Shown: positions 2,583-10,123 of the stretch, piece by piece
How the letters are laid out: each line of letters starts with the position of its first letter
Numbering within the stretch: position 1 is the stretch's first letter
NCBI GenBank assembly: GCA_001244265.2
Contig: CDLV01000005.1
Location: forward strand, 1,240,001 to 1,304,000
Source of the DNA: Microbotryum violaceum
Lineage: Eukaryota
DNA: 64,000 nucleotides
Reading direction: 5' to 3'
Made by a program: the position numbers and the translations under genes
The notes under the pieces: model-generated
The model's database searches: none
Told to the model about the DNA's origin: nothing
The model's input: the letters and a program-made list of their open reading frames with translations, nothing else

Positions 2583-5500
2583 TCACGAAGGACTAGGGAC
2601 TCGGCTATTCGTCGCCGAATGAGTTGTCGACGATGCCGAAGCGGCTTCGGCCCTAGCAGCGGTGGAGGGGTAAGGTCCAATCAATTGGCGCATTTGAACT
2701 CGAGAAGAGGATGAAGGGGTGATGGAGATTGGGGCAGCGGAAGCGCCGACGCTGTTGCGGCGCGCGACGGATCGACCGTGGCTCTTTTTCGTCGCGGACG
2801 GATCTTTAGGACCGCGGGCTCGATTGCGTTTCTGGAGACGGACGAGCAGGAAGAGTCAGTTATCTGTGAAAGATAGTAATACAGCATGTGGGGGCTCGTC
2901 CCTCACCTTAATCACACCAGTATTGAGGTTGGCGGGACGATCAACGCCATGCAAATTCCTGAACAATCCACAGGCGTTGCACAACGGACGCCCATCGGCA
3001 TCACGACGCCAAAGCGGTGTGTTCGTCGTCTGACAGTTCAAACACTTGACGACCTCCGGATCGCCTCCATCCGCAGAAGGTGTAGCCGACGTGGTTCCAA
3101 CGAGTGAAGGCGCAAGAGGTCGAACTTCTGGAATAGAAGTTTGCACCGAGATGGTGTTGCTCCTCGAGTGTGTGCGCGAAGCCGAAGCACCCAGGCCCTT
3201 GGGAAGCTTGGTTGACGTCGCTGATATACTCTCCAAGATGGGTGACAATGCCGCGTGGTGTCCAAGGCTGACGAGGTCAGGAGAGCTGGCAGAGACGCGC
3301 ACGTTCGAGCCCGTTTGAGCCTTGGGCGCCGAGGGCTGTTTGGGTCGACGTGGCACTGCAGTGGAGGATTTGATCGGACCGAGCTTTGAAGGAAGACCAC
3401 TGGCATCCGGCTTGGCGCCAGTTCCAGCCTGCGGTGGGTCCGGCGGTGAGGGCGTGCCGTGGCGCGACGCATCCCCGGGGCTGGTCAAGGCCAACGAAGA
3501 GTCCGAGTCGTAGGCAGCGGGGGTCTGTAGGAGGCTCAAAAGATGCGATGGATTGACATGGGTCATCGAAGCCGAAGGATCGAATGTGCCTTGACCAGCG
3601 GCCGAGGTACCCCCGAGGTAGGGCGATGTGAAGGCCGATCCCGCCGGTGTGCTTGCCAGGTCGGTGCGGTTGTAGTAATCGTAGAACGAGGCACTGTTGA
3701 CATCGGGGGTATCTTGATACAGCGAACCGATCGGGGAGTTGATGAAGCCATTGCCAGGGCCCGGCGCGGATTGAGGGTATGAGAAGGGATGGGGTGCATC
3801 GAATAAGGGTGTTTGCGGTTGCGAGTTGTGGCCGCTGTCGTCACGAGGGGATATTGTGCCCGAGGGTCGAGCGAGACTGAGTCCTGAAGGAGGCGCGAAG
3901 GCGAAAGGGCGCGACGACTGCGCAAGCGTGGCCGCGTTGAGGTACGCGCTCGAGGAAGCAGTCGAAGTCGAAGCTCGCCCCGCGTTCGAAGATTTGCGGC
4001 CCTGCAAGTCGCAACACCACGCCATTCCGTCAGCATCAAGACACCGCCTTTGCCCAATACACCCAACTCAACTCACCACCAAGAATTGCAGCTGCTGCTG
4101 CGCCAAAGAAGCATAGGCGCTATCCCCACTGGCTTTGCGCACTTCCGGGAAATTTGCTTCATCGGACCCAAAGCTCTTGGCCAGGCCAAGAAGACTCGAG
4201 CTTGGCGAGACGTTCGCCGATTGACGGCCCGATGAATGGGACTTTGAGTGGTTGGAGTTGCTCAACGAGTGCAGGTCGATGAGCTGATTAAGCGTGCTTT
4301 CAATCGCAGACAAGTTGGCACTGGCGGCGGGGTTGCCACCCGAGCCGGCCGCAAACGAGAACTGGGACCCCGAGTTGAGCGAGTTGCTTGTTGTCGCCGA
4401 GACCGTCGAGGTGCCCGAGATGGGGATAGCAGGCGCGCTTGGGTTCGAAGGAGCGGCAGGAGACCCGTGCGAGCCACCAAAGTCGGTCGAAGAGAGGTCA
4501 AAAGAGCTGAACATGTCGTCTGTCGCGCTGAGGCCGAGGGATGCGGCGAGCTGTACGTGAGCGGTCTGAGCCCCTGGGGGGTTGGAAATCGGGGTACTGT
4601 CGCCATAGAACCGGGAGAAGTTGGCAGTGGCAGTGGCAGAGTCGACAGTCGGAGGGGCGACCGAGACCCGGAAATCGGGTGCGCGAGAGCGGGACCTCGA
4701 GGCCGCTCGCCAGTCCATCGCATCGGGGGCTCTGGAACGGGATCGGGATTGCGACTTTGCTCGCCAATCCATGAAATCACTGTGGAGGCAAGACACGGGT
4801 CAGCTAAGGCATGCGAAGAGTGTAGGTTACGTTTGCGTCGGTACTCACTCCTCTTGTGCATTCTCGGGACTCTCACTCGCACTCGCCGAAGCCGTACCAG
4901 GTCCTGATCTCCCTCGACGACCCCTGGCCTCCTCTTCCAGCACGTCCCCCACAGGTCCGGACTTGGGCAGTCGAGCCGCTTCGTTCCGGCTGCGCAACTC
5001 CAAAACATCATCCTTTGCTTCTTCCCGTTCGGCTTCTGGTGTACTGATCGTCACGCCCGTCAAAGTCGGCGGGGGCATCGCTAGGGTATCCGCGTCCATC
5101 GTCGCAAAGGCGTTGGCTTCCGCCTCAGCTGCGGCCGTCTCTTCTCTCCGCTTCTTCAATGTCATGCTCATCAGCCTCCACGTCAAGTTCTCCATCCGCG
5201 CCCCGTTCGGCAACGTGTTCTTGGCCTTATTGAACATGCGCCAAACCTGGGCTGCGATCGGATCTTGACGACTCAACGCCTCTGCATTTTCGTCGTCGAT
5301 GATGGTCGAATCGGTCGGACTCGGCATCGAACCCAGGCCCGTTGCGGCTGGACTGGCTTTCCGACTTGTCGAACCGGCGTTGGACGTCTGGAGCAAGGCG
5401 GCGAAATCGATCGGGCTCGCTTCGTTCGAACTCGTAGTCCGCGAGGCCGGGGAGGCAAAGACGCTCTGGCCCAGCACCTCGGCAACGACCTTGGGGCTCG

Positions 5501-7328
5501 GCGTCGATTCGGCCGCGACCGCATTGGGTGATTGCGGTGATCCGTATCCACCGACCCCGTACGCGCCCACGCCCGTATGTCCTCGACGCGTCCTCGTTTC
5601 GGTCGACATCGCTGCTGCAGCGGCGGAAGCAAAGCCCATAGACGAGAATTGTTCCAAATCGTGCTCGAGCGACGAAAAGTCATAGTCGACGGGTGGTGGT
5701 GATCCGGCTTGCTGTGCTGAGGCAGACGCCGAAGCGGAAGCGGGAGCCGAAGCGACGGGTTTGGGTGATACCGGACGGGACAGGGGCGGGGTGGGGACCA
5801 CGGGAACAAAATGGGCCGAAATAGATGCCGCGCGTGAGTGGGCCGGAGACGTTTTCGTCGACAAGGACCCGCGCGGAAGCGTGGGAGGATTGGGGCCGGC
5901 GAACTCTGTCGAGGGTGAGGTTGTGGAGGGCGAGGCGAGGGGTGAGGCAGAGAAAGCGCCGGAGGTGCTGAGGCTCGGTGCAGTGCGTTGACGAGAGTGC
6001 GCGGCGCCACCATTTGCACCATTTGCACCTGCAGTCGACGCGGACATACCTCTTGCCGCCTTGATGAACGAGCTCGTCCGTCGTGGCCTCCCTTCGCCTC
6101 GGTTCGGTAAGTTGGAGCTTTGCGGGAGCGAACTGGACAGGAACGCAGCCCCTGCGCCATTGTCGGTCAGAGGTGAACCAACTGGTGACTGTGCGGCCGA
6201 AGATGTAGTCGAATACGCCTGTGACCGTCGTTGGGCTTCGAGACTGGCGTGCAGGGCGTACATGCTCGGGTCCATCAGCGGGTTCGCCATCGGAGATTGT
6301 CTGGGTGTGCCAAATGGCGAAGGGTATTGAGGTACGATTGGTGACGCATAGGGCGAATGGGAATGTGCGCGGGAATATCCGTTGTAGAGAGGGTACGGTT
6401 GAGCCATGGAAAGCCCCTGCATCGCCAAAGGCGGCAGCGGGCCGCCACGACCAAAGGCAGCGGCGTAGTTCGCAGCCTGGGCTTGGGCTGCGATCCACTC
6501 GGATTGACTGTAAGGTGAGCCCGCCGAGAGTGCCGAAGGTGTTCCTGGCGTTGTACTCGGTGGGGACAGACCTGCGCTAATGAGGGAAGCCGAAAGGGCC
6601 TGCATGTATGCTGCTTGCGCTGCGAGCTGGGCGTTGTAAATTGCCGCATCGATGGGGTCGAGTGCGGCTCGCATCATGTCTGGCATCGGAGCGGTACGGG
6701 TGGAATTCTGCTGTTTTGGTGCACTTGTTGTGGTTGCTGCTGCTGCTCCGCCTCCGGCGTCGACGGTGAACGGTGGCACGGCCGATGTCTTGCCTGGCGC
6801 CGACGGTGGTCCACTCATGTCGCACTGCGTCGAGTTCGCCGGCAGTTGGGGAAAGAAGGCCTTGCTCGCGAACGGGGGCGAGGTCGAAGGTGTGGACTCG
6901 GAGGTGGTGGTGAGGTCGTACGAGTCGACTGTGGGGGCGCCGACGGAGGAGAACGGGGATCCTGAATGGTGAGGCGAGTCGGTAGAAGCGGATGACCCCT
7001 CCGGCGTCGCGCCCGAGAAGCGCGAGCCGAGCAACACCGACGAAGCGTTAGGGATCGACGCCAGGAACGCAGCCGTCGAAGCGTTAGACGATGACGAAGC
7101 CTGTTGGTGGCTCAACGAGTTCGTGTCCGAGCCTACACCACCTTCTACGGTCGTCGTCGGTTGGGCGCCGCCGTCGCGAAGCGAGTCCGTCGAGTCGTGA
7201 ATGAAGGCGGAGAAATCAACGTCGCCTTCGTCGTCCTCGGATGCCGCAGCGTCGACGAACAGCCGATGCTCGTCACGAGTCGGCCGACCGACGCCCCAGC
7301 CTAATGCTTCGTACGACAGCGTCGCCAC
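2583..7328 (-). CDS. GAT1: AreA/Gat1-type GATA zinc-finger nitrogen regulator. The first AUG is at 6818; the coordinate given uses a proposed near-cognate GTG start at 7328.
   Basis: DUF1752-like [37 protein letters not shown] finger [50 protein letters not shown]. Last intron 2906-2832; TGA at 2585-2583. The 5' end is uncertain. Confidence 0.88.
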
Positions 7329-8554
7329 GATGTCGGAGCTCGAGAAAGCGGTTGCCAGTTGGAGGCGTTCGCTCGTCGGCGGTCGCAGCGGCGCAAGCGA
7401 GCAAGCAAGCTGGGCAAGCAACGGCAGTCAGGGCGGCGACAGCGGAAGCGGGTCAGTTTCAGTCCAGCTCCGACGTTGTTTGAGATACTCGACCGAGTCT
7501 CGGCACAGGGAGGTGCTCACTGTGTTTCAATCAAAGCCCACTTGCAAGGTCGTATGTCCTGAGCCAAGGTGATGTATGGAGAGCCTTCCGCGTTACTAAT
7601 ACCGATCGGTGGCCAGGTGAGACTGTCTTGAGATGGTTTGAGCAGGACCGTTGCCCGAGCCCATCGCCGCGGCCAGGCAGCTCTACCTGCGTCTGCCTGC
7701 ATAGGCATGCATCTGCCACAGCCTACTGCCAGCCTCTGCCAGCCTGAGGCTTGCTCGCGCGCCCGCGCCCACGGGCCACTCGCCCCACTGTGACTGCACG
7801 CAACAGGTGCTTTGTGCCTGGCCAACGGCCTTGATCGAGCTTCCCTGAAGCCGTGCGCATTGAGCGCGGTGGGAAGCTGGAGATGGCCACTCCCAAGTTG
7901 GAGTTGTAGGCAACTTTCCTCACAAGATGTGCTACTTTGAGGGCTGAAAACCCGAAAGGATCGTCTATTCGACCTCTTCTTCTAAGAAAAGAGGAAAAAC
8001 CCCGTGACTCCTTACGCCTCTCTACACGCCTGCCAGCTGGTGGAGTTCGCCATGTCCAGAGCGGAGCAGCAAATTAAACCGATCACCGGTTCCAGAGCTG
8101 CAGAGGGCGCCCGGACTTGTGCTGGCACCACTGGTAATGACAAGAGAATGCGGGTCCCAAAAGCATTCACTTGATTCATCCTTGTAGGTAACATGAGAAT
8201 AAAGGTAACCAAAGTTGTCCCAGACCGGCCTGCACACTCACCGAAGAAAGAATAGCGGATATCATCCCGACTCACACCGATACAGCGAGCTGCATGCACG
8301 CTGCGAGCGATCTGGTTGAGGATAGGAATCGGGCCAAGCCGGGTGGTATCTTTGACCGGGTAAATGACGGGCCGCCCAAACTCACCATGTCTTGAAGAAC
8401 TGGCAGTCCTCGAATCTCATTAAAAGCTCTACATCATTATGGGCGCTTTAAACCCAACTCCATTTTCCGGTGTAGGTCTAGACTCCTGAGCTAGTCTTAC
8501 CCCATGCCAATCGACTCGGGGGCCACCGGCAGCTAGGCAGCTCGCTCACCCGCT

Positions 8555-10123
8555 TCAGTGGAACGACACCTTTACGCCGACACCGAGTTGCTCCGCCATC
8601 TCGACCATCAACGCCGTGATCCCCACATCCATCCCACCGACCCCAACGCACTTGAACAACGACTTCCCATCTTGCCCACTCTTCAACCTGGCGATTAGGT
8701 CACACGCGTCGGCCGTCAAAGGGTTGCCGAGGACATCGACGATCTGGCCGAGCTCGATGCAGTTCTCAGGTACTATCCCGGCCGAGATCAGTTCGCCGGC
8801 TTCGGAAAGACAAGCGGGACGAGAGTCGACAAGGATGTAGGGGATGGGTGTCGGTGTTGTAGATGGTGAGACGAGCGAAGGGGGGAACTCGTGCATCGAG
8901 GGCATGTATGATCCGACTGCGCCGTCAGAGGAAGAAGAACAGGGGAAGAAGCCAAGCGCAGGGGGGTCAGCCACGCGAGACATCGAAGGAAACGGATATT
9001 ATTGCCTGCAAATAAGAACAAAAGGCGCAACTGGCATTGATGTGAACATTCGCTTTAAGATCCTTCGCCTCAAAGATCGGCGCTTTCGAGGGCACGCAGC
9101 TGAGCGAAGATATCTCATCAGCAGGAGTTGGGGGATCAGAGCTGGCCACGACTAACAACATCGCTCACCAGCAAATGATATCGGCTTGCTGTACACATTC
9201 GCTCGTCTTGTCGGTTCCAAGCACTTGGCTCTTGACGGTGGGGAATTGCCGACTGAGTTTTTCTATCAGCTCGGATGACCTTGATGAGGGGGATCGAACG
9301 ATGAAGCTGGCATGATTGATGGAGGGGAAGAGCTCGAGGATCAATCGAGCATGATAGTACGCCTGCGTCCCCGACCCGAAGACAACCAGCTGCTGGGATG
9401 TTGGCGCTGCCAAGATCAATGTCGCGAGAGCGGAAGCAGCACTGTGAAACGCGCATCGATCAGCGCGTCGAACTTTGGAAAGTTGCGCTGCTTTCACTGA
9501 CGCTGTTCGAAGTCCTGTCAGGGTGCTCGAATTGACCATAGCTTTGACTTGACCGGTTGATTCGTCCAGCAAGAGCGTCGTCCCAGGAAGGCCGACCTGG
9601 GCGTGGGGGGATTGGCTGTCGGGCACCGAAACGATCTTGACCGCGGTCATGGAGATGTTTTGCGATGTCGTCAATCGCGAAGGCATGTATCTGTAAGGAA
9701 ACGGGGGTTGATTCTCAGAGCTCAGTATTCTACGCTGGTACTGGACCGGCGCCTGTCAAATTGCGAACAGGGTTTTATGAAACTCCGACTGGGTAGCAAT
9801 GCGGAGTGGATTCTGCACCGGAGGTACGCCTTCGACGGGGGTCTCGGCCGCTTTAGTGATGGCGTGCATCGTTCTCCCGATCAGGTTGGCCTAAAAGAGA
9901 GTGCTGCTTCATCGTCAGTTCAATGAACCACGATGTAATCGTCGGTCCCAGGCACTGGTCAGCATCGCTCGACCGCCGCCGGGACCCGTGTGGAGCCACA
10001 GCTGCCGCAAGTCTGGCCATTTGTAGACTCAAGGAAGGGGCATGTGCGACTAACCAATGCTGATGCCGTGAGCGACTCGACAAGATCCGCGACATGTTGT
10101 GCGGAGAGCACCAGAACGGACAT
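8555..10123 (-). CDS. Ornithine cyclodeaminase / mu-crystallin (ketimine reductase) family protein, multi-exon
   Basis: MSVLVLSAQHV start; YMPSR...AVKIVSVP; LTGLRTA-AASALAT; Rossmann-like VVFGSGTQA; HINAIGSYMPSMHE; EAGELI; SLFKCVGVGGMDV at the C-terminus. Confidence 0.88.

Follow-up and report, generated by a model that had tools for sequence, protein, structure and literature searches.

How could ribosomes reach the conserved N-terminal region of a nitrogen regulator whose RNA-supported leader offers no AUG in front of it? The question is raised by a gene in a 64,000-nucleotide (nt) stretch of the Microbotryum violaceum genome (GenBank assembly GCA_001244265.2, contig CDLV01000005.1, positions 1,240,001 to 1,304,000), which we call the window; positions are counted from its first letter, and all features of the gene lie on the minus strand. 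The gene is MVLG_00964 of Microbotryum lychnidis-dioicae p1A1 Lamole, which encodes protein P0001 (1338 aa). Its annotated coding sequence (CDS), placed at 2586..6818 by tblastn of P0001, includes introns, and P0001 is 100% identical to the window translation after the ATG at 6818. This annotated start (6816..6818, context gcgacATGa) is the first AUG of the mRNA, and the reading frame stays open upstream of it. We propose that a long isoform of MVLG_00964 is produced by near-cognate initiation about 170 codons upstream of this AUG, in a cluster of in-frame codons at 7331-7317, and put the probability of this reading at roughly 0.6.

The identity of the protein is indicated by two domains, a GATA_AreA domain (Pfam PF08550) at residues 525-552 of P0001 (E=8.6e-13, 48.3 bits, cut-off 20.9) and a GATA zinc finger (PF00320) at residues 1211-1244 (E=4e-13, 49.2 bits, cut-off 26.8). 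Because both matches are above the Pfam cut-offs, MVLG_00964 is classed as an AreA/NIT2/Gat1-type nitrogen regulator, and its membership by both domains makes it the predicted main nitrogen-regulating GATA factor of the anther-smut fungus. The same two domains were precomputed for every orthologue except P0016, for which PF08550 is listed alone. No family was matched in a Pfam scan of the extension, and MVLG_00964 was named in no paper of the literature searched, which leaves out most subscription journals.

The open frame and the leader transcript

Read unspliced, minus-strand frame 0 has no stop for 203 codons, from 7427 to the ATG at 6818-6816, in line with the approximately 200 reported by a first-pass annotation of the window. 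Frames +1 and +2 each contain four stops over the same span (7427-6819). That annotation also held that the region lacks ATG codons where about ten were to be expected; indeed, a search of all minus-strand frames between 7661 and 6819 returned none. From ATG to ATG this gap measures 845 nt, and no other on the two strands of the window exceeds 505 nt. First-order Markov models predict 10.5 ATGs in this gap from the minus-strand composition and 8.7 from the downstream CDS, and ATG-free runs appeared in 0 of 2000 simulations. A model built from the segment itself, which is circular, expects 4.4 (P(0)=0.0115). The suggested avoidance of AUG is also seen in the extension alone, with 0 ATG in 175 codons against 8.3 expected at the downstream CDS rate (P=2.6e-4). 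The open frame is not an assembly slip: over 4600-8700 the window is reproduced by the DNA contigs of X6 and X9, two runs that may not be independent of the assembly, and the one mismatch falls in a 65-letter side contig of X6.

The structure of the leader was determined from run X3, which stems from a related organism (~95% identical) and provided a 3675-nt contig. This contig skips 4780-4848, an annotated intron of 69 nt that serves as an internal control, and is therefore RNA; among the runs compared, X3 was the only one proved to be so, by two intron joints. The second joint skips exactly 7410-7520, with GT..AG ends on the minus strand. As the contig joins 7521 to 7409, the 111-nt leader intron (7410..7520) is real and the mRNA extends into an upstream exon for at least 106 nt. 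The intron has a GTGAGC donor, a CCTGAC branch-like site and a CAG acceptor, its ends being those predicted by the first-pass annotation. Leader exon 1 (7521..7629) is supported by RNA from 7626, the contig aligning over 7626-7521 and ending three letters further on, and contains no ATG. Pieces of run X1 (5585-5743, 7749-7933, 8199-8416 and 8420-8700) were short, of low depth and indistinguishable as RNA or DNA, and nothing was drawn from them. Uncovered stretches, such as 7627-8497 where X3 has no contig, were not taken as evidence, and the promoter and terminator scan relies on bacterial consensus patterns, which are uninformative on the transcription start site (TSS) of a fungal gene.

This leader closes the extension to upstream AUGs. 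An in-frame TGA (7527..7529), noticed at first pass, is positioned two codons before the junction of exons 1 and 2, and 199 open codons follow it in the mature mRNA with the RNA-supported junction (2 in exon 1 and 197 in exon 2). Four ATGs (7712, 7708, 7702 and 7664) are clustered at 7662..7712, just 5' of the ATG-free zone and of the RNA contig end. With the observed junction their upstream open reading frames (uORFs) comprise 9, 98, 96 and 22 codons, respectively, and none of these joins the main frame. The junction 7521|7409, the TGA and the short uORFs together mean that, on a transcript spliced in this way, no ribosome started at an AUG reaches the extension, wherever the cap lies. The ATG-free zone begins at 7661, and the end of the X3 contig at ~7626-7629 falls shortly after that point, which is compatible with, but does not map, a cap nearby.

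Conservation and competing gene models

The extension, 170 codons when counted from the GTG at 7328 (6819..7328), displays coding signal and conservation from ~7343. Using a codon-usage log-ratio trained on the undisputed exon, 7343-6819 scored +38 in frame 0, against -75 in frame +1 and -114 in frame +2, and its GC contents at the first, second and third codon positions (GC1/2/3) were 0.56/0.60/0.77. No coding signal was detected in the 5' part of exon 2 (7344..7409; log-ratio -3.3, GC1/2/3 0.73/0.64/0.64), where frame 0 is open, or in frame 0 of exon 1 (-16.1).

A representative search with the 203-aa extension returned one protein at E<=0.001, BQ2448_4603 of M. intermedium (P0011; 77% identity, E=5e-69), to which P0012 of M. 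saponariae and P0013 of M. silenes-dioicae were added via cluster and word searches. In the comparison with M. intermedium, 136/174 residues of the extension (78.2%) are identical versus 235/292 (80.5%) at residues 204-500; for M. saponariae the corresponding counts are 169/175 (96.6%) and 279/297, with 94.8% identity for residues 204 to the end. Gaps in the extension among Microbotryum species consist exclusively of whole codons. With the frames of its own model applied to the leader, M. saponariae has 7 of 53 codons changed there, versus 6 of 175 for the extension (Fisher p=0.014). Furthermore, the X3 RNA differs over 6766-7409 (644 nt) by 33 substitutions and no gaps, and the four indels in its CDS are all multiples of 3. 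The other public Microbotryum models (3/3) have unrelated N-termini 5' of the residues SSDIVAT (7343-7320), where all of them converge, and M. intermedium reads 7344-7409 in other frames. We infer that 7343-6819 is coding sequence under protein-level constraint, matching the neighbouring CDS in conservation across four species. Earlier predictions that the extension is real coding sequence, that its frame is kept at orthologous loci and that it is under purifying selection are thus supported, the last at the level of the protein, and conservation starts within a few codons of GTG 7328.

All three congener models, BQ5605_C019g08966 (P0013), that of M. saponariae (P0012) and BQ2448_4603, carry the extension in frame, each from its own ATG and through 57-72 N-terminal residues that are mutually non-homologous in frame. 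Missed 5' exons are in general far commoner than non-AUG starts, and the long form could be a case of mis-annotation, starting at the AUG of an upstream exon that is spliced in frame. An exon of this kind, held by the first-pass annotation to speak against its proposal, does exist as a model in two sister species. In the window, ATG 7708 and the donor at 7520 can be combined with either of two GAG acceptors (7339..7372; G of AG at 7372 and 7339) that bring this ATG in frame. Acceptor 7372 is that of the M. silenes-dioicae and M. saponariae models, and its use yields the first 110 residues of P0013 exactly. Acceptor 7339 is preceded by a pyrimidine-rich run and placed where conservation begins. 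However, the sole RNA junction seen is 7521|7409 and both alternative acceptors are unused in the X3 contig, in which minor isoforms would be invisible. Both are also of the GAG type, the rarest among acceptors, and the frame of exon 1 is unconserved, being shifted once in M. saponariae and several times in M. intermedium relative to the window. Because these models require a GAG acceptor, the RNA uses CAG 7410 and the exon-1 frame is not conserved, we regard the sister N-termini as products of gene finders that demand an ATG; if our proposal holds, all three species-specific N-termini in the public models are probably not real.

A second route to mis-annotation would join a far-upstream exon (ATG 8388|GTGAGT or ATG 8265...|GTGAGT) to acceptor 7410. 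Single-intron GT..AG solutions were enumerated for the 17 upstream ATGs (7664-8505), setting the intron minimum at 40 nt and taking acceptors within 7470-7301; a solution was kept as a rival if it had a consensus donor or the confirmed acceptor. The frame is left open by 134 ATG/GT/AG combinations, too many to be informative alone. Two of them pair consensus GTGAGT donors (8385 and 8241) with the confirmed acceptor 7410, and three GTGAGT sequences fall within 150 nt (8236-8385), compared with ~0.4 per kb per strand elsewhere in the window. Against this, 7409-7344 possesses neither coding signal nor frame conservation, hence an exon joined at 7410 is unlikely to be coding. Introns of 832-976 nt would also be needed, compared with the 111 and 69 nt seen in RNA, and the exons would fall in or near the 3' end of the transcript of the upstream gene. 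By either route, the absence of ATG from all frames is left unexplained, and we consider mis-annotation unlikely as the source of the long form.

Frameshifting or reinitiation would offer a way past the closed leader, with the long form arising from the out-of-frame ATG 7708, whose 98-codon ORF overlaps 7343-7302. With the observed junction this ORF ends at ~7304 and overlaps the start of the conserved frame, the homologous frame of M. intermedium is fused to the main frame via indels, and uORF frameshifting is raised as a formal alternative in the available text of the cpc-1 study (PMC5487733). No shift site or stimulatory structure was found, however, ATG 7708 lies 5' of the RNA contig end, and the mechanism has a low prior; we judge this origin highly improbable.

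The extension might also be a relic. In this reading the ancestor of the M. lychnidis-dioicae group lost the AUG of what was then the N-terminus, which persists as a long, undecayed 5' untranslated region (UTR), the protein being made from AUG 6818. The Broad annotation starts at 6818, and the orthologue of Microbotryomycetes sp. JL221 (P0009) is likewise annotated from the equivalent downstream region. M. intermedium may retain an AUG and the three AUG-less species are closely related, so little time may have elapsed for decay. The pattern of change nevertheless speaks against a decaying sequence, as the extension is no less conserved in M. saponariae than the remaining protein and has fewer changes than the leader. 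The X3 contig has no indels in it whereas the CDS has four, GC3 and codon bias are intact, and a total lack of ATG in all frames would not be expected. A relic is accordingly an explanation to which we attach little weight, and near-cognate initiation of a conserved extension is the one we prefer.

The orthologue P0009, which has GATA_AreA and GATA domains, goes under the name 'Sodium- and chloride-dependent GABA transporter 1' in its source record, apparently by mistake. It is annotated from the equivalent of the short form and may conceal a similar unannotated extension. P0013 is another model with a peculiarity: it lacks 43 residues at ~6263-6135 (minus strand), including a block largely conserved among orthologues (two invariant and four nearly invariant columns), and is otherwise 99% identical to the window protein. 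The lack is probably due to a spurious intron in the annotation.

Deep homology and the start region

Orthologues from the Sporidiobolales show what may once have preceded the extension. All nine (P0002-P0007, P0014-P0016) begin with an AUG that is followed within the first 30 residues by VDFS(A/D)(F/Y), and TSPPFAS occurs ~70-100 residues after this first motif, exactly in 6/9 and with one substitution in 3/9. The Microbotryum extension is collinear with all nine N-termini, the same motifs appearing in the same order: a 15-residue acidic-hydrophobic motif (with VDFSAF; 7194..7238) shared with the extreme N-termini of the Sporidiobolales proteins, and then TSPPFAS (6864..6884), which aligns with its counterparts there. 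The VDFSAF region looks like an activation motif. In addition, the second Met of all nine orthologues (residues 85-128) aligns with AUG 6818, and no Met lies between the first and second. When the nine sequences were cut at the second Met, hhalign gave a match of 83 columns (E=1.2e-4) with a moderate probability of 54.5%. The similarity is too short for a library-wide E-value and is visible in alignments alone. As the Sporidiobolales keep both the Met-free interval and the second Met, the two-start design may predate the loss of the AUG and be ancient for this regulator within the Microbotryomycetes.

The proposed start region in Microbotryum is the in-frame near-cognate cluster ATC GTG GCG ACG CTG (7317..7331). 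Its contexts are G-3/G+4 for ATC 7331, A-3/G+4 for GTG 7328, G-3/C+4 for ACG 7322 and A-3/T+4 for CTG 7319, hence a purine at -3 for all four near-cognates and G at +4 for two. In-frame near-cognates further 5' (7388, 7376 and 7358) all have C at -3. The first-pass annotation had singled out GTG 7328-7326 for its A-3/G+4 context and an in-frame CTG ten codons 5', and both are present, the latter at 7358. In a residue-level comparison D-I-V-A-T is identical in all four Microbotryum sequences and the Leu of CTG 7319 is replaced by Gln in two of the four. GUG 7328 is the best candidate for the start within the cluster. Near-cognate starts are inefficient in general.

The following mechanism is proposed. 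Scanning ribosomes would initiate inefficiently in AUC-GUG-GCG-ACG-CUG (7331-7317) and produce a long form whose first ~170 residues are encoded 5' of the annotated AUG. For those passing the cluster, the next 510 nt hold no AUG in any frame, and they would start at AUG 6818, giving a short form without the acidic VDFSAF region. In Microbotryum, the near-cognate start would have replaced the first AUG that the Sporidiobolales kept.

Several observations weigh against near-cognate initiation of a long isoform, or at least limit it. Since the AUG-started Sporidiobolales proteins share the Met-free interval, amino-acid composition may account for some of the ATG avoidance. Their N-terminal similarity to the extension is short and compositionally biased, the first hhalign comparison covering 13 columns at a probability of 28%, and VDFSAF is not clear in 3 of the 12 non-Microbotryum orthologues (P0008, P0009 and P0010). 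The near-cognate cluster was compared across species at the level of residues, and RNA folding of 7345-7230 (-49.2 kcal/mol, z = -0.53) gave no start-enhancing hairpin 3' of the cluster. The RNA is from a relative and not from this strain, contigs drop minor splice forms, and the contig end at ~7626-7629 is no mapped TSS, with ATGs 35-85 nt further upstream. Furthermore, where the window has CTG 7645, the M. intermedium model carries an in-frame ATG from which an open path leads into the extension. This AUG may serve in M. intermedium and possibly be the ancestral start; the path, whose frame is not homologous to that of the other species, could also be fortuitous. Because of this model, AUG-less initiation may be limited to the group of M. 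lychnidis-dioicae, M. silenes-dioicae and M. saponariae. The long form and its start site are predictions from sequence and one RNA contig.

If near-cognate initiation is correct, a non-AUG start appears to be the sole route to the conserved N-terminal motif. A wider scenario can be offered tentatively, as one that we think may well not hold. In it, the acidic N-terminal region would be reachable throughout the anther-smut genus solely by a near-cognate start, an ancestral AUG having given way to the AUC-GUG-ACG cluster, and the two-AUG design would have become a switch between full and truncated activator. Such a switch would be sensitive to start-codon stringency, and through the status of eIF1, eIF5 and eIF2 it could respond to nutrients or stress while the fungus grows in its host. 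That the isoform ratio is set by start-codon stringency or by nutrient state is speculation.

The proposal, if true, would place the central nitrogen regulator of a plant-castrating model fungus under a translational control that is absent from four public annotations. These annotations disagree on the N-terminus: one would shorten the protein by 170 residues and three would add species-specific N-termini. It would also provide a clean evolutionary case in which an AUG was swapped for a near-cognate start while the domain behind it was kept. Knock-outs, tagging, domain studies and orthologue comparisons should use the extended N-terminus.

Other features were observed at the locus. Within the CDS, at 6766-6774 (minus strand), M. 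lychnidis-dioicae lacks 15 codons (45 nt), roughly '...YTVPLDWRTGTQSG...', which are present in M. silenes-dioicae, M. saponariae and M. intermedium (3/3) and in the X3 RNA contig, and the JL221 orthologue P0009 retains a similar segment. A 9-nt repeat flanks the site, where the X6 and X9 DNA contigs agree with the window; an in-frame deletion by slippage, particular to the strain or species, would seem to be the origin. The spacer that separates MVLG_00964 from the upstream gene contains the GTGAGT donors 8385, 8275 and 8241 (minus strand), that at 8385 directly after ATG 8388. They may belong to alternative first exons or to UTR introns of the upstream gene, or have arisen by chance. An upstream ORF on the same strand (8555-8998) has its end at 8555. 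Over 8498-8700 the window is matched by a second X3 contig, of depth 243, whose following 164 letters depart from the window, hence the two organisms differ at the 3' end of the upstream transcript.

Comparison with known systems

The mechanism of near-cognate initiation is itself well known, and a GATA/AreA factor would be a further case of it. In the literature searched, which leaves most subscription journals outside, non-AUG initiation was reported neither for AreA, NIT2 or Gat1 nor in Microbotryum. MVLG_00964 would join the few fungal activators with non-AUG extensions, of which cpc-1 is the studied case. In the available part of that study, the N-terminal extension of Neurospora crassa CPC1, a cpc-1/GCN4 homologue, is translated from near-cognates, with initiation shown in vitro and supported in vivo (PMC5487733). 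CPC1 and MVLG_00964 are both activators of a nutrient response with a long leader and a conserved in-frame extension that lacks AUG and has near-cognates in good context, and in both the extension was inferred from its conserved frame (PMC5487733). The two differ in that CPC1, as described there, is a bZIP protein of the amino-acid response with leader AUG uORFs that are bypassed, whereas MVLG_00964 is a GATA/AreA protein known from sequence, with an AUG-free confirmed leader (PMC5487733).

Saccharomyces cerevisiae Gat1 is closer in function, being likewise a nitrogen-responsive GATA activator. According to the accessible text it has two full-length N-terminal isoforms, starting at AUGs M40 and M95 through alternative transcription starts, and the first in-frame Met of its ORF is unused (PMC4615157). 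Unlike the proposal for MVLG_00964, no non-AUG start is involved in the yeast case as presented there (PMC4615157). By analogy, an internal TSS could make the short form of MVLG_00964 independently of leaky scanning.

Within the basidiomycetes, the excerpted account of Cryptococcus describes near-cognate starts with ribosome-profiling support for LeuRS (adjacent ACG-AUU) and ArgRS (AUU) (PMC7049704). LeuRS resembles MVLG_00964 in its adjacent near-cognates in strong context and in an N-terminally extended isoform made by leaky scanning on a single mRNA, which is proposed here (PMC7049704). The Cryptococcus extensions are mitochondrial targeting peptides of housekeeping enzymes in that account, whereas that of MVLG_00964, as read from sequence, is a low-complexity region of ~170 residues with an acidic motif (PMC7049704). 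The same source reports that weak AUGs and near-cognates have replaced one another repeatedly in fungi, which matches the pattern found here of an AUG in the Sporidiobolales and none in Microbotryum (PMC7049704).

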